Origin: Alloascoidea hylecoeti
Lineage: Eukaryota
Assembly: GCA_001600815.1 (NCBI GenBank)
Contig: BCKZ01000001.1
Coordinates: 1,036,613 to 1,100,612, forward strand
Direction of reading: 5' to 3'
DNA: 64,000 nucleotides
Below the pieces are notes generated by a model that had not been told where the DNA came from, did not search any database, and saw only the letters and a program-made list of their open reading frames with translations. The translations under genes were made by a program, and so were the position numbers. Of the stretch, positions 189-54,688 are shown piece by piece (position 1 is the stretch's first letter; the number at the start of each line of letters is the position of its first letter).

Positions 189-262
189 TGATTCGACCCA
201 GGATCGAACTGGGGACGTTCTGCGTGTTAAGCAGATGCCATAACCAACTAGACCATCGAACC
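189..262 (-). tRNA. tRNA-Val(AAC), intronless
   Basis: Reverse complement reads GGTTCGATGGTCTAGTTGGTTATGGCATCTGCTTAACACGCAGAACGTCCCCAGTTCGATCCTGGGTCGAATCA. It folds as a cloverleaf with anticodon stem TCTGC/GCAGA, anticodon AAC and T-loop TTCGATC. Confidence 0.97.
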
Positions 263-400: not shown

Positions 401-574
401 TTACTTTTAAGGTGGTCTAGGTTCATGAGAGAAGAAAGAAGAGTGGCAAGAATATACAAAAATAAGAAGAATAGAAAAAGAGGTTTTTATTTCACTATAT
501 ACAGTAGAGATTTCCTCAGTATTTACATAGTTTCTAGTTATATGACTTAATTATATGAAAAGTTAAAAAAAAAA
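401..574 (+). mobile_element. Short poly(A)-tailed repeat, copy 1 (candidate SINE or 3' end of a non-LTR retrotransposon), upstream of tRNA-Val
   Basis: Aligns by eye over its whole length with 12989..13183 (ACTTTTAAGGTGGTCTAGG...AAAAATAAGAAGAATAGAAA...GTAGAGATTTCCTCAG...TTACATAGTTTCTAGTTATAT...). It ends in an A10 run and is also preceded by an A10 run. Confidence 0.7.
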
Positions 575-2728: not shown

Positions 2729-4885
2729 ATGACCCGATCGCAAACAAACTCCTTTCTAGTTTTATTTCTCTTTATTTCATCTTTATTCATTTCTCTTGTA
2801 AAATCAACGCCAATTTCCCACTTGAAAATTCAAAATATTCAACAAAAAGCTCCTTATCGTATAAATGAGGTGGATAAATCTATAAATTATCCTGTAGAGC
2901 TAAACGCTCTTCATACCCCTACCCCCAAAATAAATGTCACTGATATTTACCAAGTTTCTTCTTACTTACCTGATTTGGGTAATCCTGTTTATTCACAGAA
3001 TGTGATGACCCACGTCTTCGGAAATTCTTATGGACAACCATTTATCGGTAAATACTCCTCCCCAGATCTCGATTACGACCACGTTTTAATCAAATTGGAA
3101 GCTTCAACATTCGGTATTCAATATGATAGATTGGCTCTATTATATTTGGATAACTTTGAGATTTGGAGAACTTCGACTGCAGAACCAGGAAATGATAATA
3201 TTACATTTAGTTACACAAAAGACGCTACAAGATATTTAAAATTATTCGAAGAAGCTTCGGAAATTACATTTGATTTGGGTAATATAGTCAATGATCAATA
3301 CACAGGTCCATTCACAGTTTCAATAACTTTTGAATATTATAAAGTTGGCGATAACAATATTAATGATGTTGATAGTATTCTGGAGTTACATCAATCAATC
3401 GTTCCTGCTAACAAGATCATCAAAATCACTGATAAGACAGTAGACTTACCAAATAATCCTATAAATGTACATATTGATCCATTACCATTAAATACAACTA
3501 AGGTAGTAGTTGATATCTTTGCATCTGGTGCTCATGATGAAGAATTCTGGTATTTTGGTGATTCAGCAACAAGCGCGGGTCGGTATATTGAATTGAGTGT
3601 TGATGGTGATCTAACTGGGGTCATTCTTCCCTTTTCAATACTTTATACTGGGGGGATATTTCCAAGTTTATGGCGCCCAATTGTAGGAATAAATACTTAT
3701 GATGTTCCTTCTTATCAAATTGATATTACACCGTTATTACCTATTCTATGGGAAAAAGGAGCTAACATCTCAATAAATGTTGCTAATGGATTTGATCACA
3801 AAGCGCCTCTTGGTCAATATTGGATTGTATCAGCTAACTTACTTAGCTGGGAATTACCTAATATTAAAGGATCCGGTGAAGTAATTAACAATGATAGTAA
3901 TAATAATACTTTTATCTTTAATAATCCTACTCACAATAATTTGACTATAATTGAATCCCTATTTTTTAATTCAACGGTATATACAACAGCTAAATTGTCC
4001 TTTACTGGTGGAATATTGTGGCCAGATTCTGAAACATTAATTCTAGAATCTTCAACAAATGTAGAATTTGATCATTTCTCATCTGACAGCAAAACGGTCA
4101 CCGAAATTGGTCAATTTTCATATGGTTCCTCTTTATTAACTAATCTTCCAGATGATGCAGCAAGTGAGACGTTTAATAGTTCTATACATGGAACTATTTC
4201 TGGCTATTCGTATTTATACCCTCTAGCCCTTAATTATTATTCACCTGACTTCATTCAAGGATCAAATGTTCCTTTAATCATTGACATATTAAGAGGTTAT
4301 GGTATCTATGATAATGACCATGTTCTTTGGACAAGACAAGATGCAACCATGAATGGTTCTGTTGCTTCATCTGGTAGAGCTCAAACTTTTGACATTGAAA
4401 CAGTTCAAACTCTAGAAGAATTATATTATGATTATTTCGTCGACACTACAACTAACTACACTTCTTACGACCATCATTCCTTAACCAAATCTTCTGTAAA
4501 CGCCACAAGACAAAGTCATTTAGATTCAAGTAATGGTTCAAGCTATGTGGGCGGATACACATTTCCCGATACCGGCTCAAATTATGCTCCTATCTCAGGG
4601 TTTGGATTAGAAGATGATCTTGTAATCATACTTAAAAATGGAGTTAATGAGTTATTATCTAACAAAGATAATATTGACGCTGCTATTTCTGTTATTAAAA
4701 ATACGTTATATAAGTTGGATGGACATTTTAATCCTCCGGCTTTTAAGCCTTTATCTCCTAATCTTTCTGCAATCCAATCTGATACGACTCAAAATGTTAA
4801 CATACCAATCACATTTGAAATAGAGAGCAATGAATGGACACTTGATAATTTATTTGATGGACTATTAGGTAGATTACCTTTTTAA
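2729..4885 (+). CDS. Secreted peptide:N-glycanase A (PNGase A-like amidase), paralogue 1
   Basis: ATG at 2729 followed by a hydrophobic signal peptide. Motifs FGNSYGQP, QYDRLA..EIWRTSTAEP, DEEFWY and YTGGIFPSLWRPIVGI are typical of acidic PNGase A. Confidence 0.88.
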   Translation: MTRSQTNSFLVLFLFISSLFISLVKSTPISHLKIQNIQQKAPYRINEVDKSINYPVELNALHTPTPKINVTDIYQVSSYLPDLGNPVYSQNVMTHVFGNSYGQPFIGKYSSPDLDYDHVLIKLEASTFGIQYDRLALLYLDNFEIWRTSTAEPGNDNITFSYTKDATRYLKLFEEASEITFDLGNIVNDQYTGPFTVSITFEYYKVGDNNINDVDSILELHQSIVPANKIIKITDKTVDLPNNPINVHIDPLPLNTTKVVVDIFASGAHDEEFWYFGDSATSAGRYIELSVDGDLTGVILPFSILYTGGIFPSLWRPIVGINTYDVPSYQIDITPLLPILWEKGANISINVANGFDHKAPLGQYWIVSANLLSWELPNIKGSGEVINNDSNNNTFIFNNPTHNNLTIIESLFFNSTVYTTAKLSFTGGILWPDSETLILESSTNVEFDHFSSDSKTVTEIGQFSYGSSLLTNLPDDAASETFNSSIHGTISGYSYLYPLALNYYSPDFIQGSNVPLIIDILRGYGIYDNDHVLWTRQDATMNGSVASSGRAQTFDIETVQTLEELYYDYFVDTTTNYTSYDHHSLTKSSVNATRQSHLDSSNGSSYVGGYTFPDTGSNYAPISGFGLEDDLVIILKNGVNELLSNKDNIDAAISVIKNTLYKLDGHFNPPAFKPLSPNLSAIQSDTTQNVNIPITFEIESNEWTLDNLFDGLLGRLPF
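2933..3864 (+). repeat. Left arm of ~930 bp near-identical inverted repeat (PNGase A core)
   Basis: Reverse complement of 6848..7779. I saw only about 3 mismatches by eye (2941, ~3055, ~3796), and similarity drops sharply on both sides. Confidence 0.95.
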
Positions 4886-5877
4886 AAATGTTTAACATTG
4901 ATCTTTCTCCTTTTATCTACCCATGAATCTAAATTTAATATTGCTATTGAAAATGAATTTAATTCAATTGCAATTGGCCTGGTTCAATTTCAGCCTATTA
5001 CTATATAAGGCAGATGATCAAGTTTTTACTGATTCGAAGATAAAACCTCAAGTTTATTATATAATATAAATCAAATTTAATAGTCTAGCTTAAATAGTTA
5101 TACTTTTAATAAAATGATGTATGAAAAAAAAACACAATTATAAGTTACTATACATGCTGTATATTTAAAAGATGCGTATAGCTTTTAATTAAATATACCG
5201 GTATATCATAATACTGATAGTTATGTAAGTAATAATTGTCATATTTTAAATTTTTAGAATTCAAATTGAACTCATTTAAGAAATCTTGGTGGACTTCATG
5301 TGCGATTACCTGCATTTAATAATAAAGCTTGAGAAAGCAGCAATATGGTAATTATAAACTTAAGGGGAAATTTTGAGGAGTAAGAATATATGAAACTATT
5401 AAGCCTACAGCCGATTTTTTGAATCGAAATTTCGATCCCTTTAATTAAATGTGATCTGGTGAACACATATAGAGTGTGCAAAGCAATTGACCACAACCAA
5501 AAACAGATCGGGAAAACACCGGCGCCTATTGTGAAAAACCTCTTTATCTGTTTAGAATATTATCTTATTTCTCCTGTTTTGTACTCAAATCTTTTCCTAT
5601 CTGTCATTAGAAGGGGTTTTATACTAGTTGCAGCAGTTGAAAACATGTATTTTTGAACTAGATCGATAACGGTACGTAGATAATAATTTACTTTAGTGGT
5701 GGAAAAATTAAAAGAAATTTGAATTATAATAGGAATAAGAGAAATATATATATATATATATTAATATGAGGGGTTTCATATTAAGTATTAATTACCCAAG
5801 TAGGCAGCAGTTTCTAGTAGAATTTTAAATCGTTTGTATATATTTATTTTGTTCTTTGGGGTATTTGAGGGCTTTCT

Positions 5878-8016
5878 TTACTTTTCTTCAACTTTAAAGT
5901 CAACATTAACCCATCTCTTCTTATTGATGGATAATTTTGAAGGAATAGAAGCTGAAGAAACGAATTTTCCAAGTAATTTATGTAGGGTCTCTCTGATTAT
6001 TGAATTTATAACTTCACTGTTATCTTTATTCGATACTAATCTGTTAGCTGCGCTTTTAAGTAATGTTGTCATTTCATCATCTATTCCAAATCCAGAAACC
6101 GGCATAAAATTTGAATAAGTCCTAGGGAATAAGAAATCTCCTTTTACAACTTCTGAATTATCATTTGAAACCAAACTATCAACACTTGTAGCGTTTATAC
6201 TCGATTTAGTTAAAGAGTGAAAATTATTGGATGTGTAGTTGGTGGTAATGTCAGCATATGAATCATAATATATTTCCTCTAAGTCTTGAACAGTTTTAAT
6301 TTCATACTTTGAAAGCCGCCCAGACCCTAAGATGGTGCCATCTGCGGTTGCATTTTGTCGTGTCCAGAGAATGCTTTTAGGGTCGTATATCCCATAACCT
6401 CTCAAAACGTCAATGGAAAGAGGAAGTTCTGATCCATTTATAGGGTTCGGCCAATAATAATTGAGTGCGAGGGGATATAAATAAGAATAGCCGGATATAG
6501 GCTTAACTACATGTGTAAATTTGTCGACTGTACATTTTGACATTATAGGTTTTAGGATGGATAATATAGAAGAACCTGATGAAAATTGGCCAATTTGTGC
6601 GCGTGAATCAAAATCCGAAGAAAAATGCCCGAACTCTAATTTAGTTGAAGATTCCAAAATCAATGTTTCCATGTCTAACAAAAGCATCTTGGTATCACTC
6701 TCATTATGGAACCATAATTGTGCTAATGTAGATACTGCTGAGTTGAAAAGCAAAGATTCGACTGCACTCAAATTATTGTTTTCCAGATTTGTAAAGATTT
6801 CTGTATTGTTCTTGTTGTTATGATCAAGAATCTTCCCTGATCCCTTGATATTAGGTAATTCCCAGCTAAGTAAGTTAGCTGATACAATCCAATATTGACC
6901 AAGAGGCGCTTTGTAATCAAATCCATTAGCAACATTTATTGAGATGTTAGCTCCTTTTTCCCATAGAATAGGTAATAACGGTGTAATATCAATTTGATAA
7001 GAAGGAACATCATAAGTATTTATTCCTACAATTGGGCGCCATAAACTTGGAAATATCCCCCCAGTATAAAGTATTGAAAAGGGAAGAATGACCCCAGTTA
7101 GATCACCATCAACACTCAATTCAATATACCGACCCGCGCTTGTTGCTGAATCACCAAAATACCAGAATTCTTCATCATGAGCACCAGATGCAAAGATATC
7201 AACTACTACCTTAGTTGTATTTAATGGTAATGGATCAATATGTACATTTATAGGATTATTTGGTAAGTCTACTGTCTTATCAGTGATTTTGATGATCTTG
7301 TTAGCAGGAACGATTGATTGATGTAACTCCAGAATACTATCAACATCATTAATATTGTTATCGCCAACTTTATAATATTCAAAAGTTATTGAAACTGTGA
7401 ATGGACCTGTGTATTGATCATTGACTATATTACCCAAATCAAATGTAATTTCCGAAGCTTCTTCGAATAATTTTAAATATCTTGTAGCGTCTTTTGTGTA
7501 ACTAAATGTAATATTATCATTTCCTGGTTCTGCAGTCGAAGTTCTCCAAATCTCAAAGTTATCCAAATATAATAGAGCCAATCTATCATATTGAATACCG
7601 AATGTTGAAGCTTCCAATTTGATTAAAACGTGGTCGTAATCGAGATCTGGGGAGGAATATTTACCGATAAATGGTTGTCCATAAGAATTTCCGAAGACGT
7701 GGGTCATCACATTCTGTGAATAAACAGGATTACCCAAATCAGGTAAGTAAGAAGAAACTTGGTAAATATCGGTGACATTCAATTCAGAAGTTTCTGACGA
7801 CGACGAACGATGATTAAGTTGTCTAGACCTCAGACAATTTCCAGATACATCTACAACACTTTTTGAATGTAACACGCCAGACCCAGGGTGTACCTGCTTA
7901 AGTTTTGGAAAAGTAACTGGTTTCGAACTAACAAAAGAAACCAAACAGAAGGAAATCAGAAGTAATAATTGGTAATTATAAGGCTTTACCCTAAAAATAT
8001 AACAAGAAGTAGACAT
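5878..8016 (-). CDS. Secreted PNGase A-like amidase, paralogue 2 (convergent with paralogue 1)
   Basis: 712-aa ORF with a signal peptide and the same PNGase A motifs. Its N-terminal ~78 aa and C-terminal ~320 aa are diverged from paralogue 1. Confidence 0.88.
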   Translation of the reverse strand: MSTSCYIFRVKPYNYQLLLLISFCLVSFVSSKPVTFPKLKQVHPGSGVLHSKSVVDVSGNCLRSRQLNHRSSSSETSELNVTDIYQVSSYLPDLGNPVYSQNVMTHVFGNSYGQPFIGKYSSPDLDYDHVLIKLEASTFGIQYDRLALLYLDNFEIWRTSTAEPGNDNITFSYTKDATRYLKLFEEASEITFDLGNIVNDQYTGPFTVSITFEYYKVGDNNINDVDSILELHQSIVPANKIIKITDKTVDLPNNPINVHIDPLPLNTTKVVVDIFASGAHDEEFWYFGDSATSAGRYIELSVDGDLTGVILPFSILYTGGIFPSLWRPIVGINTYDVPSYQIDITPLLPILWEKGANISINVANGFDYKAPLGQYWIVSANLLSWELPNIKGSGKILDHNNKNNTEIFTNLENNNLSAVESLLFNSAVSTLAQLWFHNESDTKMLLLDMETLILESSTKLEFGHFSSDFDSRAQIGQFSSGSSILSILKPIMSKCTVDKFTHVVKPISGYSYLYPLALNYYWPNPINGSELPLSIDVLRGYGIYDPKSILWTRQNATADGTILGSGRLSKYEIKTVQDLEEIYYDSYADITTNYTSNNFHSLTKSSINATSVDSLVSNDNSEVVKGDFLFPRTYSNFMPVSGFGIDDEMTTLLKSAANRLVSNKDNSEVINSIIRETLHKLLGKFVSSASIPSKLSINKKRWVNVDFKVEEK
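6848..7779 (-). repeat. Right arm of ~930 bp inverted repeat (PNGase A core)
   Basis: Encodes the same NVTDIYQV...WELPNI stretch as paralogue 1, with a single H/Y amino-acid difference. Confidence 0.95.
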
Positions 8017-12403: not shown

Positions 12404-12836
12404 TTTTGTCTTGAATAGAATTAATTGGAAAGATGGAGTAAGTTGACCTTTGGGTGTTAAATAACTAACATTAACAATTGAAATTACGACAATCATACCC
12501 CATAATAAGGTATTTTTACAATAGAACCTCTCCTCCATTCATGGTTTTATATCCAATCAACCCCATAGACGGTTAGCAATTGGGGAGTTTTTTTTTTCAC
12601 CTAATCATTTTATTATAAATTATACTTGCTAATCTATAAGAGGATAAAAAGAATCATTGAATAATTTTATATAACAAAGGTTTAAATATTGTGCGGTAAA
12701 ACCAAGACTGATATCATATCTAATATGATCATACTTTATTTGTATCTCTGAATTAATTTACGTTTTAACGAATTTTTTTTTACGAAAGCGGAACCACTGG
12801 GAAGCAAAAATATAAAATAAATATAAAAAAGAAATG

Positions 12837-12923
12837 CTTCCCCGCCAGGGGTCGAACCTGGAATCTTTCGCTTGTGACCAATTTGAATCGTAGGCGAACG
12901 CCTTGCCATTGGGCCACGAGGAA
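12837..12923 (-). tRNA. tRNA-Arg(ACG) with 15-nt intron (12873..12887)
   Basis: TTCCTCG TGGCCCAATGGCAAGGC G TTCGC CT ACG A [TTCAAATTGGTCACA] A GCGAA AGATT CCAGG TTCGACC CCTGG CGGGGAA G. The acceptor stem matches yeast Arg(ACG), and the intron is at the canonical 37/38 position. Confidence 0.92.
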
Positions 12924-12988
12924 CAAGCTTTTTCTGATGGGCCACACAACTTAAACATGTCGAAAGCAGAAATTGCATAAAACCTGTT

Positions 12989-13183
12989 TTCACTTTTAAG
13001 GTGGTCTAGGTACATAAGAAGTGAAGAAAGAAGAGTGTCAAGAATACACAAAAATAAGAAGAATAGAAAGAGAGGTTTTGATTTCACTATATATAGTAGA
13101 GATTTCCTCAGAAGTTACATAGTTTCTAGTTATATAATTTAATTGGAAAATATATGAAAAATTAAAAAAAAAAAAAAAAAAAA
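12989..13183 (+). mobile_element. Short poly(A)-tailed retroposon-like element, copy 2, flanked by 10-bp TSD AAAACCTGTT (12979..12988 and 13184..13193)
   Basis: Homologous to 401..574. It has a terminal A-run of more than 20 nt and direct repeats at both ends, and lies 56-65 bp upstream of tRNA-Arg. Confidence 0.8.
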
Positions 13184-13299
13184 AAAACCTGTTCAGACAG
13201 AAAAGTAGAAAAAAATTCACCTCCAACCAACAAAGACTTCTTTTCCGCCATTTATATATTTTATATATGATTGCAGTACGAGTATTTGAAGTATAGATA

Positions 13300-16200
13300 A
13301 TGTCATCATCAGTTGGATTTAATAACGATCATGATCGTGAATATGGTCACGATCACGATAGCCCAATTTTATCCTCATCGCCTTCCGTTTCTGTCAGTCC
13401 ATTTCACTCCTCACCTGTTCTTTCACCAAGACAATCCGAATCAGATATCGATAAGGCAGTATCACTTTTAACATCAATTGCAAATAATAATAATGATCAA
13501 AATAATACCGATGAAAATGATTCTTCAACTTTTATTCAAACATCGCAATCTCATGTATTACCGGTAGCTGCGGCAGCAACTAATATAATTAGACCAAGGG
13601 ACAACAGACGAAAATCTTTCTCTACGTCATTATCCCCAACACATTCCCGATTTCCTCATTTTCATCCCGATAAAGTTGAAGAAGAAGATGGACCATTCCC
13701 GACAAATTTAAGACCAACTCCAAACGATCACCATCAGATGAGATCTTTTGGAGACGATTCTTATTCTTCTTTAAATTCTTCCTTAAATTATAATATTTAT
13801 GACCATCGTCCCAGTTATCAACATCAGAATAATTCTCAGTCTCATTCTCATTCTCAATCTCACTTTTCTTCTTCTACCCACGGAACTCAACAAAAACGTA
13901 AATCCACTTTTAATACAGATTCAAATACTATGGGTATTAATCTTCCTGTATCCTCTCATGATCGAAGAAAATCTGTCCCTACAGGAAAAATTAATTACAG
14001 AGAAAATTTGACTTCTGCGCCGACAACTAGAGTAAACCAACAACATCATTATTCAACAGTAACTAATAATTTAAATACTAATTCTTCACCACTTACTAAA
14101 GAAGTTAATTATTCTCAAAACATTTCAACTCCTTCATCATCATCTGGGTTAACAAATGTTCCTTCTTATCCCCCGCGCGGGGGTCCGGATAATACAGGAA
14201 AAAATGCCGTTGATGATTGGGTAAATCATGGTACAAAGCGATATCAACCACATTATGTGTCAGGAACAGATGAGAATGATAATGAAGCAATTCTATCTTC
14301 TAATACCAATATCAATAATCAATTTGGGTTTCCGCCAAGAACGAATGATTCACTTTTCATTAACGTTATTGATCCACTTGATAACTCACAACCCCTTAAT
14401 CACAATAGTACTAATAAAACATCAAAAACCAAATCAAAAACTAAATCTTATTTTAAAAGTACTAATAATGATTATTCTTATAATACTGAATCATCATCAG
14501 ATGATATTATAAATCATGGATTTGGAGTCTTTGATAATCGAAGTATAAATTCTCATGGTTCAAGTAGTATTGAAAATATTAATTTAGATTTTCAAGATAA
14601 TGACAATGAATCAATATCTTCTTCGTCAACGTCATCATCAAGTGGATCTTCGTTGGATGATGTTTGCTTTCCCGTTGAAACAACTGAAGATAATAATGGC
14701 GGTATTAATGCTTGGCCAGATTTGGAAGTTTTGAATCAATTTGCTGAAGAAGAAAGATTAGAATTAGAAATGTTATTGAAAAAAAGAGAAAAAGAATTAT
14801 TAATAATGAATAATTTAAATAATCAAAGCAATAATGCAACTGCTTCAACATCACAATTAAGAAATAATTATTTAAGTGGTAGTTTGTCATCATCACATAA
14901 TAGTATTTTTGAAAATGAAGTTGTTAAATTTAAACAACCATTAATTACTCCTAATGCATTAAGAAATCAAAAAAAAGTTAATGAGACTGAAATCATGAAT
15001 AAACCACATCGTTATCTTCCATGGGATAAGCATCATCATAATCATAAAAATACCAACATTAATAATGGTAATGATAATAATCATAATGCTGGTGAGCATA
15101 ATACTAATAATAATCGTCATGCAAGAAGAAGTAATTCAAATATGAAAAAATTTAAAAAACATGATGATATTTCAAAAATTATAAATGGTATACCAGGAGT
15201 TTATGATGAAAAATCTTTCATTCAGTATAGATTTACTTATTTCAGAGAAGATTTAAATTCAACTATTCATTCTCCAACAATTTCTGGTTTATTACAGCCA
15301 GGACAAACTTTTGCAAATTTATTTAGCCCAGAACAATTATTACAACAACAACAGGCACAACAAGCACAACAACCAAATCAACCAAATCAACAAGGTAATG
15401 GACAACCTAATAGAACTCAAATCTCAGTTCCCAATCCATCAATACAACCTCAAACTCCAATATTAAATAATGGTAATAATGATATATCAAATCTTGATCC
15501 ATTGACTAATAATGGAAAAACAACTCCAATTTTAAACAATTCCAATTCCAATTCCAATGGTAATGAAATTGGTGGTTCCCAACATCATTTAACACCAAAA
15601 CAATCTCAATCTCGGCCTCAATCTCGATCTCAATCTCGGCCTCAATCTCAGTCTCAATCTCGACCTCAATCTCAATCAGCATCAATTTCACCTTCATTCA
15701 ATGAAGCTCAAGAATCAATTGATCCAATACCATTTTGGCTTGACGTTTTAAACCCTACAGAAGAAGAAATGAAAACGTTAAGTAAATCATTTGGTATACA
15801 TCCTTTAACAACTGAGGATATTTTTTTAAGAGAAACTAGAGAAAAAGTTGAATTATTTAAAAATTATTACTTTATTTGTTTTAGAAGTTTTGATATATCA
15901 CAAGAACGTAAAAAAAGAGAAAGAAAACAAGCAAAATTAGAAAAGAAATTCCAAGACGAAAAGAAAAGAAGAAGTTTTTTCAATAATAGTTATAATTTTA
16001 ATAATAATAGTAATAATAATAATGGAGTTATTAATGAAACATCAAATTTATTAAATGATGGTGGTTTTAATGGTACATCTTTTGAAAATTCAAATCTTGA
16101 AAATAATGAAAATTTTAATGGTAATTCTGGTAAACCAACATTTAAAAATATTTCAAATATTTTTAGAAGAAGATCAAGTAGATCAAAAAGCTTTTCATCT

Positions 16201-21549: not shown

Positions 21550-23949
21550 TTTTGGAATAGATAGAACCAAAGATGAAGTTGTTGATAGAGAGGGAAAATT
21601 ATATGAATATGAATAAGAATATGAATAAGAATATGAATAAGAATATGAAGAAATTGATTTGTGAGGTTAATGTAGAATATTTAACAAAAGCAATGTGTTA
21701 ATAAAACAACTTTAAATATTAACAAAGAAATATATCTTTAAAGTTGCTGACAGATAAGGGGAACAGTCTAAATATAAGAAGATTTTTATATTATCTAACC
21801 AAAATGAATATCTCAGATAACAGTCCTGTGATTTGTTCTGTGATTTGGTCTGTGATTTTTTATGTGATTTGTTCTGTGATCTAACGGTTGTACCGTTCCG
21901 GATTGTGATCTGTCAATTCTCTATAGTGAACATATAATGTTGTGTTTTAGTCTGTTTTGGATATCGGGGATCAAGCAGACGTATGTCCCTGCCTGCACAG
22001 ACACCTTAAACATTAAAATGCAAAAATATTTATACTAAAATAACTATTAATTGTGAAATTTCAACTTCGATAACACCTCTTTAGTTTCTACTTATGAGAC
22101 TTAATTATAATCTCAGCTATGCGATCTTTCCTTTGAATCTGGATCAAGATAGCGATCCTGATTTCCATCTTACTAAACTATTACCTCACTTGACTGTCGT
22201 TGTTTTGCTCCAATTGTTTAAAACTACTGCAAGGTTATTAATTGAAAATAACTCGCTCAAGTTAATTTAATGCAGGGTAAATCATATTTTATAGAATACA
22301 TGTCAGGTGACGTATCCTTCTCAAAAAGGTATTCTTATGACAATGGAACTCCATCGCTGATTACTAACTTATATTTCATCAAATTATTCCGAGTAATACT
22401 AGTAGGATATTGAACTTACCTATTAAAGAAATATATATCAAAACTAACCATTATCTAGCTATTATGCTCGACAAGGTTAGCATAACATTCTGATGGAATC
22501 TGATCCCACCTGCAGCCGATATTTTTATTTAGAAGGATCATCATTTTGGTTATGTGGCTATAGTTTATAATTTATTACTTATATAATAAAAGAAACTCAA
22601 TGGAACAGTACTAGTACAAACATTAAAGTGATTTTGAGTGAAACATATATAATAGATAGCTTTAAAGATGTATAGCTAGTTGTGGTATGGGTCTATTAAC
22701 TAATATAATAGGCTATAATGGATATATAAACTGTTTAAATTTCATCACAAAAACGGTCTTACAATACAACATATCTTTTTAACATCTTCCAATTACACGG
22801 GTTCTAAAATATAATGTTTTTGTTGTCGTGGTATCAGATTTTGTAGATATAAGTTTAAGTTTAAGCTAAGCTTAAGCTTAACCCTTACTTTAGTTTTTCT
22901 CTTTCTTACTATTGTAATCAATGGAAATGGGCTTTATATCAGTACCCCATTCTAAAATAATAATTAAACATGACTTCTACAGCAATAACAAGAATGGTGC
23001 CTATCAGTTCGAATTTGGTATATTGTCGTCATCACCATACAAATATAATACGTTTCTATATTTTTACCTATTAGTCGAAGGAATAAAGTTATCATTGCAA
23101 AAAGAAACATAAAGTAGCCTAACCTAATCCAGAACGAATAAGAATGAGTATTAAACCTAGGTAGCTATATCTGAGCTAGTCCAAAACTATTAGTCTTTAG
23201 CTGGCGATTAAGCTTGACAATATATAAATTTTTCAAAGGAACTTACTTCGTGATTGAACTTTATATTAAATTAATGAACCATGTGCCTAGGGACTTTGGG
23301 AGGCTGTTCTTGAGTTCTTGAGGTGAACTAATCCAGCTATTACAATGCATCTGCATTATATTAGTTATTGAATTGATATACGCATTACGTAGCTATAAGT
23401 TACAGTAGCACTACATGTAGTACACATGAAAATATATCTTCATGATCATGAGGATTGCAAACGTATTAATATTCTTGTTAATACATGTATTTAAGAAGAT
23501 TCATCTATTGATTTTCTGTGGCCTGCAAATTTAACACAATTGAAAGACACCATTGTAGTAAGAACTAAAATATTGAATCTTCTTCGTTGAACTACTATTA
23601 GATATGTTCGTGTAGCTGGATCAAGTCTAAAGTTACGCTTTTCTTTTCGGGCCACCACTCCAAATAACAGTGTAAATATTATAAACACAGCTGCTTAGTA
23701 CTCTAAAAGGCCTTAAAATAACTATTTTTGAAATAGCACATAATGTTCTTTAAATTCTAGGGGGTTCTATTAGTCCATATATAAAATTAAGTTCAGTAGT
23801 TTAGTGTTAGCGCCCTTAACGCCATAAACGACTGGCACTCTAGGGGGCACAGGACCAACCGCTCTATACAGTGAAGTATATATATACAACTACTTTCCAA
23901 ATTCCAGCTTATACGACAAGATTTACTGAACCAGCTTTCTTTATTTATA

Positions 23950-33704: not shown

Positions 33705-34280
33705 CTTAAGTATTTATACTTCTTCGTATTATAGAATACTGTCACTAGATTAGGTATTAATTAAAAGGGTCTGTGCAGGGCAAATCTCAATACATTATCT
33801 AAAAAGGGTTTGAACCCTGAAATAATATTCTGTACAGGCGAGCAATAATTGTACGTCTTCCAAAAAATATTGTCCACTTTGCGGATATTATCAGTTTTAA
33901 TGATACACAACTATTACACATATTCAATTATTCACTGCATTTGAAAATAACCGAAGCATTTTATAATAACCGAAGCGTTTCATATTTCTTTATGTGCGAC
34001 AGACCCCGACAGTGCGAAGCTTAAGTATCTAGTATTATAATATAGATATTACAGAATACTATCATTAGGCATCAATTCAAAGGGTCCGTGCAGGGTAAAT
34101 CTCAATGCATTATCTGAAAAGGGTTTGAACCCTGAGATGATATTCTGTGGAGGCGAGTAATAATTAATGTTGTAAGTTATCCAAAAATAAAATGCCCACT
34201 TTTCGGCTATTATCAGTTTTAATTATACACGCATTCATTTCACTGTATTTGAAATTAAGCGAAGTATTTGATAATATCCA
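33705..34280. repeat. Diverged tandem duplication (period ~315 bp) of the permease upstream region
   Basis: 33705..~33970 aligns with 34020..~34280. Both copies keep the palindrome AGGGTTTGAACCCT (33805-33818 and 34120-34133) and TTATC sites. Confidence 0.88.
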
Positions 34281-35974
34281 AATAACATAGAAGTGAAGAA
34301 AACTCTATTTTTTGAGTCTCTTTCAAACTATTAGGACCCCATGGATCATTGATAATCTGATTGAGTTCAGTATATTGTCAGATGTTTATTTGATTAAGAG
34401 CGGTAACACTAAATACTATACTTAGAATATCATTTTATGGAGACTAATAGAATCTTCTCAAGTATCTACAGAACATGCACTCCTTTAAGAACAGTTTAAG
34501 GCCTTCTAGAGTATTCAGTAGTTAGCCTTTTAGAGTTGTGTCTGGAAAAAAAGCTTAAAAATTTAGATCTGTGAGATCTGTCAATTTATCTGCAGCTTTC
34601 TCAATGCGAACCTATACAGATCTAACTACATAATCATCCCATGGCAATGCCATCATATGTTTTATATACATATACGCGTATATGGCCGCCGTTGTAGCTT
34701 ACAGTTCAGATGTGTATCTTAACCCTATTAGATGATTTCATTTTGTATATTTGTACGATAACATCGATACATAATAAGTGACTTTACTGTATTTCTAATA
34801 ATAATGTTAGCCCTTTTCCTACTACCAGAACTGGTCCGAAAGGACATAATTTATTATATAATATTCATCTTGTTCTTCAAAACTAGGCCTATAATTATGT
34901 AGCTAGCTGACATAAATTTCTCAAGTACAACTATATAGAAGAGAATGCTTATATAAATACAAGTATTGAGAACAGCCATTGAATAATTACAAGAGGGGAA
35001 GAGGCATAATAATATTAGATATTGTTGAGCGGCATTCCTTACAATTATCAAAAGGATGTGATGCCCAAGCATGATTGCGAGCGTTTAAATTTGAAAGTAA
35101 AGTGTTAACTAGAGATAGATATTACGACGTCTAAATATTTTGTATTCTGTTATCTTGCAACCTTAAGCTGCAATATCAAGCATGGATCAAAAAGGTGTAT
35201 CCACATCCAAATGTTTTCTAAGGAACATCTGATACTATTTACAAAAGTATGATTTCTTGCAAAGGATTTTTTCTACCCAATGAAACGAAACCTCTCAATA
35301 TAGGTGTGTGTGTGTGTGAGACGTTTATTCCTTCACATGACTATATATGATTGTTTGCAACAGTTACTTTCCTAAAGTAGGAGTGTGGAGTTGTTCCTTT
35401 TCCAGTGAAACTTCTGGATCTTTCAAAGTATCTCTGTACTTTTCAACTCTTAATGACACATCCAGAACTCTATCAAACTTAAGCTTGGTACTAATTCTGA
35501 TATCACCTTTGAATCATACCATACAGTGTATATGTCTATCAGATGTGTCATATGTTTAAATTATGGTTGTGAAATAATAAATTTAAATATAAAGCGGTAT
35601 ATTCGGTGGATTACAACGTTATTTCACTCTGAAAAGCAAACGATTTATAGACAGGAAATCTTGATTGAATAAATACTACCAAACAAAATAGAAATTACAT
35701 TGCCTAACCTCTCTATGTATTATTGGAATGTATCATTGAAGACATTCTATTAATCACCTCCTTTTGCAATGACAACTTATTTTAGTCGCTTTGGCATGGA
35801 TACAATGAGTTAATCAAAGAAATTTTGATCCAGCTGATCCCATAACTCTGGCATTTCTGGCAGACGAATCTTGACTTCTTGGCACCACCTTTTAGCTCTG
35901 TAGCTAACTCTGAAAGCTTGTGGCGCACATTTTTCAATGGAAATTAGGTCTTGGGCCGATTCCAAAAAAATTAT

Positions 35975-36162
35975 TTGGTAGCTGATTTCATTTAATAAAT
36001 TACGGACATTAACTCCGTTTTTGGCTATACCAGGAGATTATATTTCCATTAAGACACACAATTGAACCTGATTGACCATATCCATATCTCACCACCAGAA
36101 TCGGAATCCGAGACCACAATTGGTTTTAATTCACTGGGAATCCCATAATAAATTTTAGCTTC
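35975..36162 (-). mobile_element. Decayed Ty1/copia RT-RNase H fragment
   Basis: EAKIYYGIPSELKPIVVSDSDSGGE, then a frameshift, then YGQSGSIVCLNGNIISWYSQKRS*, then RNLLNEISY. This matches the copia SDSDwaG..S.SG.v..l.G..ISW.SkkQ...LR.LL.ElG series, with the EAEY segment apparently deleted. Confidence 0.75.
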
Positions 36163-40409: not shown

Positions 40410-40488
40410 TATAACAAATAAAAACAAAAAGGAAGACAAAAAGGAAGACAAAAAGGAAGACAAAGACAAAGACAAAGGCAAAAACAAA

Positions 40489-40519
<31 letters not shown>

Positions 40520-40632
40520 TAAAAAACAAAATAAAAAACAAAATAAAAAACAAAATAAAAAACAAAATAAAAAACAAAATAAAAATAAAAATAAAAATAA
40601 AAATAAAAATAAAAATAAAAATAAAAATAAAG
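40410..40632. repeat. Non-coding low-complexity tandem arrays (AAAAGGAAGACA, AAAAAT, AAAAAACAAAAT)
   Basis: Directly visible 6- and 12-bp units. The overlapping F/Y/L-rich ORFs are artefacts of the repeat. Confidence 0.9.
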
Positions 40633-40914
40633 GTAGAAATGAAATGAAATCAAACGACGTAAAGTAGAAATTTATATTAACGCCAAGTATACCATCAAAC
40701 ATGACAACATGTTTGATATATAAAACACCACAACAATTAACATATATAAGTTAATTATTAATATTGATGTTGAAATGCTAACCATAGAACACCATTAACG
40801 AAACTAGGATTATGAAAGAAGTTACCAATTAAAAAAGAATGATGATGTAATTATGAAAAATATGAAACAAACTAATAAAATTATTTAAATTAATTTAAAT
40901 TTAAAGGAATGTTA

Positions 40915-54042: not shown

Positions 54043-54688
54043 TTTTAGAAAAGTTAAAAAAAAACTAAAAAGAATCACAAGAAAGATGTAATTATAAATA
54101 AAAAGAAAGAGAAAGAAAGAAGATAATCTGAGGAATAATCATGATGGATAGACCGGCAGTATACCGTAAGTTTGAGTACATATATCTCGGGAATAGATTT
54201 TTGATATAAATTATTTTCGTTTCATTCAAGGCTATGGTTTTCTATTTTTGGTCTTTTTTAGATTACTTACATAGTTAACCTCCTTCCTGTGGCAAAAAAA
54301 TTAAATTAAGTACTAAAAGAGACTCAAAAAATGATCAAGAGGCTTTAAAATGCCGAGGAACGTGAAAAAGAAGGATTGAAGAGCATGTCATGATTTTATT
54401 CTAGAATTTATGATTATTATAACAAATTTATAACTTCACAATGCATTGAAATAATGTTTTTTTAAATTTATGGTGTGTATCGATATCTTTAAGTCCTATA
54501 TCGATCAGATTTTATACAATTGCAATTGGGTAGGCTGTGCTTTATTGTCATTCGGTATATAAATATTAGTAACTATGGAAAAAAATATTGAATACTATAT
54601 AGAAATATTTAAAGGTTGTAAACATTTATATAATGAATCAAGAGCTGAAACGTATTAGAAAAAATCCTCAAATGTCAACAGATAATAT

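Follow-up and report, generated by a model that had tools for sequence, protein, structure and literature searches.

Genomic context of the locus

The analyzed window, a 64-kb stretch of DNA, has a base composition of 31.4% G+C and represents an A/T-rich, intron-poor, ordinary segment of a budding-yeast chromosome. Pfam families were assigned to 17 of the 21 scanned open reading frames (ORFs; 22 ORFs of at least 150 aa are listed in the window), including GAPDH, Chs5, CorA, PLB, permeases, and a UBC enzyme. The best named relatives of the Chs5 protein belong to Saccharomycopsis and Wickerhamomyces, with 65-67% identity and approximately 63% of the query aligned. Upstream of this CHS5-like gene lies an A-rich array of tandem repeats with a period of 6/12 nt (40477-40645), which surfaced as a series of weak matches to the tail of the element described below. 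Two genes of the PNGase A family (2933-4509 and 6185-7779, encoding 718 and 712 aa) form a convergent, inverted duplicate pair that is 85.4% identical over 1609 nt. Two ORF-poor gaps at 21.2-26.9 and 33.6-37.5 kb contain no ORF of at least 150 aa and harbor local repeats, namely a direct pair (33727-33974 and 34047-34282, 77%), an inverted pair (23691-23837 and 34521-34376, 70%), and a third pair (36017-36074 and 36284-36220, 77%).

Exactly two tRNA genes were identified in the window by ARAGORN, both on the minus strand, and each is preceded by one copy of a short repeated element (Table 1). The tRNA-Val gene was recovered by Rfam in a 1-kb scan and was absent from the whole-window scan at the gathering threshold; this omission probably stems from filtering by the tool rather than from biology. 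The tRNA-Arg gene exceeds the standard tRNA length by approximately 15 nt, pointing to an intron 3' of the anticodon. A contig from one public sequencing run (X4, see below) matches this gene plus 8 nt and diverges thereafter, indicating that an identical tRNA-Arg paralogue exists elsewhere in the genome.

A second repeat family was observed at 12588-12745, in the interval that separates the UBC-like gene from tRNA-Arg, on the 3' side of the latter. Its summed contig depth in runs X1, X2, and X4 is approximately 29-31 times the single-copy level at 12582-12622 and approximately 6-8 times by 12664-12745, with diverse flanks ahead of 12588. A weak relative is located on the minus strand at 5053-5132 (71% over 92 nt, E 1.9e-5). 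This family may consist of LTRs or of retroposons of another kind positioned downstream of tRNA genes.

Table 1. Coordinates of the tRNA genes and of the two element copies in the 64-kb window.
Feature	Position	Strand	Remarks
tRNA-Val(AAC)	189-262	-	ARAGORN; Rfam 52.8 bits
Body of retroposon copy B	401-564	+	3-nt and 7-nt deletions
A-run of copy B	565-574	+	shortened, A10
tRNA-Arg(ACG)	12836-12923	-	88 nt; transcribed away from copy A; ARAGORN; Rfam 45.1 bits
Left copy of target-site duplication	12979-12988	.	10 bp, AAAACCTGTT; 56-65 nt upstream of first base of tRNA-Arg
Body of retroposon copy A	12989-13163	+	175 nt; 27% G+C; 61% purine; non-coding
Poly(A) tail of copy A	13164-13183	+	20 A
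Right copy of target-site duplication	13184-13193	.	AAAACCTGTT

Structure of the two element copies

The copy next to tRNA-Arg(ACG), hereafter copy A, starts 66 nt upstream of the tRNA gene in divergent orientation, so that its 5' end faces the tRNA. Its A-run is uninterrupted from 13164 to 13187 and comprises 24 A in total, the final four of which form the start of the right AAAACCTGTT. The initial annotation of this DNA had described an element of about 195 bp with an A-run of more than 20 nt and a perfect 10-bp direct repeat, located 56-65 bp upstream of tRNA-Arg with its 5' end toward the tRNA. This description agrees with the obtained coordinates and the ARAGORN predictions, which define a 175-nt body followed by A24 and bordered on both sides by AAAACCTGTT. 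Homology between copy A and the second copy (copy B) starts at 12990-12992, only 1-3 nt from the left repeat, and its other border falls in the A-run; thus, the 10-bp repeat brackets the repeated unit exactly. With four offsets allowed, the probability of a chance recurrence of the 6-nt non-A core of the repeat, CCTGTT, at a junction of this kind is approximately 0.0024. Neither terminal inverted repeats nor an ORF was found in the element. The perfect duplication and the pure tail of 20-24 nt indicate that copy A was inserted recently.

Copy B is 87.9% identical to copy A over 182 nt (E 5e-63) and begins 139 nt upstream of tRNA-Val(AAC), again divergent and in the same relative orientation as copy A. 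The diverged homologue that had been reported at 401-574, upstream of the only other tRNA gene in the window and in the same orientation, is thereby corroborated. Just ahead of copy B lies a run of ten A followed by TT (391-402), and no clear target duplication was detected at this copy. Judged by its 12% divergence and shrunken tail, copy B appears to be older than copy A.

No third full or half copy was found in the 64-kb window, as had been noted previously. The best leftover matches are a 28-nt fragment at 22082-22109 that is identical to the 3' part of copy B at 25 of 28 positions and has no A-run (E 5.7e-5), and a 17-nt stretch at 54048-54064 identical to the last bases of copy B and its A-run. 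Both are far from any tRNA gene, and they may be either extreme remnants of the family away from tRNA genes or chance matches. Searches for older element remnants in the flanks of the two copies (263-400, 575-700, 12924-12988, and 13194-13299) gave local alignments no better than those of shuffled sequences; for the flank at 263-400, which contains a tail-like stretch at 361-400, the score was reached by 270 of 500 shuffles.

Copy A carries a TATA-like motif, TATATATA, at 13090-13097, and its end is separated by 107 nt from the downstream start codon (ATG, 13300) of a 1303-aa ORF encoding a CorA-family transporter. Insertion of copy A may have reshaped the promoter of this gene through the TATATATA motif and the 24-nt dA:dT run.

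Classification of the element

The class of the element was assessed by its termini, its relation to known small RNAs, its promoter motifs, its folding, and its coding content. In both copies a 3' poly(A) tail is present at the end of the homology (A24 in copy A and A10 in copy B), and the 10-bp target duplication at copy A falls within the range of 7-20 bp that characterizes non-LTR retroposons. Copy A begins with TTCACTTT... and ends in ...AATT(A)n, and the corresponding termini of copy B are TTACTTT... and ...AGTT(A)n. The initial annotation had considered that the element could be part of an LTR with TG...CA ends; such termini are absent from copies A and B on either strand.

Rfam searches of both copies with E values up to 10 identified no tRNA, 5S, 7SL, or other family, and a few weak snoRNA-like matches (E 3.5-8) were dismissed. 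The best A-box and B-box scores for a Pol III promoter were reached by 51% and 60% of shuffled sequences, respectively. The element and the D-arm of tRNA-Val have an 8-nt sequence, TGGTCTAG, in common, but the similarity falls short of a credible A box. Having neither a head derived from a small RNA nor credible Pol III boxes, the element does not qualify as a classical SINE; "SINE-like" or "short non-autonomous retroposon" is the more fitting term. RNA folding compared with shuffled sequences gave z-scores of -1.65 for copy A and +0.65 for copy B, and no structure in common was found between them. No ORF for a reverse transcriptase or an endonuclease was detected in the window, either among the 21 ORFs scanned with Pfam or in the ORF-poor gaps.

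Family abundance in public sequencing contigs

To characterize the family beyond the window, Logan contigs from four public runs were aligned to positions 12500-13700 at a likeness of at least 80%. Runs X1, X2, and X4 were each generated in a different study and contain 84-93% of the words of the locus. The matches of the fourth run, X9, which derives from another organism, are confined to the tRNA and a short stretch of coding sequence. In each of the three runs, 123-130 contigs were placed, of which approximately 21-27 match at 99% or more, 44-47 at 95-99%, 35-40 at 90-95%, and 14-23 below 90%.

The summed word depth rises steeply along the element in all three runs (Table 2). Relative to the single-copy flank, the depth is 29-fold (X1), 50-fold (X2), and 33-fold (X4) in the bin at 12992-13032 and reaches 277-fold (X1), 389-fold (X2), and 348-fold (X4) at 13115-13155. 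Depths summed over contigs cannot be read as copy numbers and give an order of magnitude only; in this sense, the family size lies between approximately 10^2 and a few times 10^2 copy equivalents, among which 3' ends are the commonest. The gradient from 29-50-fold to 277-389-fold suggests the presence of 5'-truncated members. The same bias could also arise if the 5' half were more diverged or if some subfamilies had only the 3' part in common.

Table 2. Summed word depth of Logan contigs over the single-copy flank and four bins of the element.
Run	Flank	12992-13032	13033-13073	13074-13114	13115-13155
X1	10.5	301	1200	2810	2908
X2	58.6	2902	10250	20181	22797
X4	7.67	253	1319	2429	2666

At position 13114, which is covered by 24-27 distinct contigs per run, nearly all copies have T, compared with G in copy A. 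The many distinct variant contexts rule out a single high-copy source such as organelle DNA. In four X2 contigs the match ends at 12992 and is preceded by a run consisting almost entirely of A and ending in TTT, the same arrangement as the A10 and TT ahead of copy B. The 5' end common to copy A, copy B, and these four contigs thus defines a 5' terminus in at least six copies. No contig of X1, X2, or X4 spans either junction of copy A, leaving these junctions without independent read support, and no empty-site joint across the element was found among the contigs of the three runs, none of which reaches either junction. A conserved 21-mer of the element had 0 matches in the genome contig collection and 0 in the viral contig collection; the single metagenome contig that matched was dismissed as a chance hit, as the match falls in coding sequence and neither a tRNA nor the element is present.

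Proposed mechanism of insertion

The reconstructed target of copy A reads ...GCAT-AAAACCTGTT-CAGA..., and the deduced first-strand nick (n = 1) lies in the bottom strand at 5'-TTTT/AT-3', between 12978 and 12979 and 55 nt upstream of tRNA-Arg. The L1 endonuclease prefers TTTT/A, and the nick deduced for copy A from the DNA sequence fits an L1-type pattern. The multi-copy nature of the element, its 3' bias, the L1-type nick, and the lack of LTR ends strengthen the retroposon reading proposed by the initial annotation; the strict designation "SINE" had to be given up, since the element has no small-RNA-derived head and no Pol III boxes. Based on these results, we consider it highly probable that copies A and B belong to a real, recent, high-copy family of poly(A) retroposons made by target-primed reverse transcription.

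In the proposed mechanism, the bottom strand would first be nicked at 5'-TTTT/AT-3', the T-rich 3' end would pair with the poly(A) tail of the element RNA and prime cDNA synthesis, and a top-strand cut 10 nt further on would give rise to the AAAACCTGTT duplication. As no reverse transcriptase or endonuclease is encoded in the window, the enzymes must come from elsewhere; an L1-like LINE outside the window would supply an APE endonuclease and a reverse transcriptase, mobilizing the element in trans. Copies A and B would then be short (approximately 175 nt plus tail), non-coding members of a high-copy family. A preference for sites upstream of and divergent from tRNA genes could arise from contact of an element protein with TFIIIB/TFIIIC, as in TRE5-A, or alternatively from the open, A/T-rich DNA at such sites. 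As a whole, a retroposon family mobilized by an L1-like LINE, with a probable preference for the upstream side of tRNA genes, is the best explanation of the data, although we regard the full combination as standing about midway between doubt and acceptance.

Position relative to tRNA genes and possible targeting

Both copies in the window are located within 150 nt upstream of a tRNA gene and are divergent from it, and both tRNA genes of the window are thereby occupied. With 30,976 non-ORF bases available, the chance of both junctions falling in those zones in one orientation is P ~5e-5 (4.7e-5), a value that relates to n = 2 copies and to a finding selected for that very adjacency. If only runs of at least four A or T are taken as targets, 5 of the 668 non-coding runs are in the zones and correctly oriented, giving P ~5.6e-5 under the same selection and the same sample of two copies. 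The distances to the tRNA genes are unequal, 66 nt for copy A vs 139 nt for copy B. If the fragments at 22082-22109 and 54048-54064 are real remnants of the family, targeting is not strict.

A genome-wide bias of the family toward the upstream side of tRNA genes is plausible from the two of two copies in the window, and we incline slightly toward accepting it. The tail, the duplication, the nick sequence, the high copy number, the lack of LTR or TIR ends, and the location of both copies are observed, and a LINE partner, mobilization in trans, and any active tRNA targeting are inferred. The tRNA gene complement of yeasts is of the same order as the rough copy number of the family, a comparison that is no test of targeting. 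In its most specific form, the proposal is that homing to a zone approximately 55-65 nt ahead of tRNA genes, with divergent insertion, has evolved independently in this family, with a 175-nt promoter-less rider present at about one copy per tRNA gene (~10^2 or more). We put this forward tentatively, leaning somewhat against it.

Comparison with known systems

In position and orientation, the closest known systems are TRE5/TRE5-A of Dictyostelium and NLTR-B of Polysphondylium, which likewise have an oligo(A) 3' end, TPRT-type insertion, and a location upstream of tRNA genes in opposite orientation. According to the available excerpts of the respective reports, TRE5 inserts 40-54 nt and NLTR-B 39-64 nt upstream of tRNA genes (PMC5911963; PMC5006619), and the target of copy A at -56 to -65 adjoins these windows. 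In contrast to the 4- to 6-kb autonomous amoeba elements with ORF1 and ORF2, the present unit is a 175-nt non-coding element of a yeast. Furthermore, unlike the narrow TRE5 window, copy B is located at 139 nt, and the targeting considered here concerns two copies only.

Zorro3, an L1-clade LINE of Candida albicans, resembles the element in its budding-yeast host, its 3' poly(A), the A-rich DNA on the 5' side of many copies, and its use of A-starting or A-rich targets in promoter-side intergenic DNA, as far as the available parts of its descriptions go. In these excerpts, Zorro3 inserts into poly-A tracts and has poly-A at both ends (PMC1965478; PMC7175516), and no tRNA gene association is described among 30 new insertions (PMC1965478). 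Unlike Zorro3, which in the same excerpts is a 5.8-kb, low-copy element with two ORFs, the present element is short, non-coding, and represented by approximately 10^2 or more copy equivalents. A pre-existing A tract, as used by Zorro3, fits copy B (A10) and the four X2 contigs; copy A does not fit, as its target has only A4 within a mixed-sequence 10-bp duplication.

Classical SINEs share with the element a size of 100-300 nt, the non-coding nature, the A-tail, target duplications, a high copy number, and a presumed dependence on LINEs, but the element lacks their tRNA-, 7SL-, or 5S-derived head. The solo LTRs of Ty1-Ty4, Tca8-beta, and Tyl are also short repeats upstream of tRNA genes in compact yeast genomes, and these carry TG...CA termini and duplications of short, fixed length generated by an integrase, whereas the element has neither and ends in poly(A). 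Taken together, the element would resemble TRE5/NLTR-B in position and orientation, Zorro3 in its host and A-rich flanks, and SINEs in its size and dependence.

In the excerpt of a comparative review that was available, solo LTRs upstream of tRNA genes are the rule in yeasts (PMC5911963, table 1), tRNA-targeted non-LTR elements are tabulated only for dictyostelids, and the elements listed as targeting Pol III genes in fungi are all LTR elements, which use an integrase (PMC5911963). From the parts of the literature at hand, the non-LTR elements described in budding yeasts comprise only a few low-copy LINEs (Zorro and Ylli). The accessible portion of a C. albicans review states that little is known about SINEs in this species (PMC3956500), and that of a Yarrowia paper only speculates on SINE-like evolution (PMC5014426); a 2017 review of Saccharomycotina genomes has 0 occurrences of "non-LTR" or "Zorro" (PMC5499181). 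Neither a tRNA-targeted non-LTR element of fungi nor a SINE family of a budding yeast was found in the literature searched, and other papers or supplements could contain one.

Alternative explanations

The strongest alternative is that the same retroposon has no specificity for tRNA genes and inserts, like Zorro3, where open intergenic DNA offers A-rich or poly(A) targets, its proximity to tRNA genes being due to chance or tolerated persistence. The A-rich runs ahead of copy B and the four X2 contigs, the AAAA at the start of the copy A target, the unequal distances of 66 and 139 nt, and the possible fragments away from tRNA genes all agree with such behavior, as do the poly-A tract insertion, the poly-A at both ends, and the lack of tRNA association in the available descriptions of Zorro3 (PMC1965478; PMC7175516). 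However, only 5 of the 668 A4+/T4+ runs lie in the tRNA zones in the right orientation, which makes two of two a rare outcome by chance (P ~5.6e-5), and the A4 in the copy A target is no poly(A) tract. Moreover, the site occupied by copy A is itself part of a promoter, with the ATG of the gene (13300) 107 nt away, and the argument that tRNA flanks are a "safe haven" is accordingly weak. We regard insertion without tRNA specificity as a serious possibility, with perhaps a third of our confidence.

The 175-nt unit could also be the 3' end of a full-length LINE, the copies being 5'-truncated insertions with a preferred break point. The rise in depth from 29-50-fold to 277-389-fold toward the 3' end is what 5' truncation predicts, and the element has no Pol III promoter that would account for its independent transcription. 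On the other hand, copy A, copy B, and the four X2 contigs have the same 5' end to within 3 nt (12989-12992), with unrelated or A-rich DNA ahead, and homology shows no leftward extension among the matches listed (32 pieces; 381 more exist). A truncated LINE is an unlikely source of the unit.

A solo LTR or a piece of a Ty1/Ty3-type LTR, with the A-run as an ordinary poly(dA:dT) tract of a promoter, would be in line with the solo LTRs usual upstream of yeast tRNA genes in the available part of the comparative review (PMC5911963), with the TATATATA motif in the element, and with the second repeat family (12588-12745, at approximately 30 times the single-copy depth) on the other side of tRNA-Arg. 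This origin was rejected as very improbable, as both copies lack TG...CA termini on both strands, the flanking repeat is 10 bp rather than 4-6 bp, the homology between copies A and B ends within the A-run, and the abundance is biased toward the 3' end. Finally, the unit may be immobile, representing an artefact of the assembly or else a conserved module with a regulatory or RNA-gene function in the vicinity of tRNA genes; this reading would agree with the lack of contigs across either junction of copy A in the three runs, but it is the least credible explanation of all given the hundreds of copy equivalents at 90-99% similarity in three studies, the absence of any Rfam family at E up to 10, folding no better than that of shuffled sequences (z -1.65 and +0.65), and a tail and duplication structure that has no regulatory explanation.

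Implications for yeast retroelements

Non-LTR elements are considered scarce in budding yeasts, and a short poly(A) retroposon at approximately 10^2 or more copies in a compact genome would be notable. The insertion is also relevant to the evolution of promoters: with copy A, a TATA-like motif and an extended dA:dT tract have come to lie no more than 107 nt from the gene for a CorA-family transporter. If the homing reading is true, fungi would have an equivalent of the TRE5 elements of Dictyostelium, and Saccharomycotina their first SINE-like family of such a size. If the tRNA bias holds, it would represent a third independent invention of homing to tRNA genes, by an integration chemistry different from that of LTR integrases, and the reading of TFIIIB/TFIIIC as a landmark by a target-primed element would become testable in a genetically tractable group.
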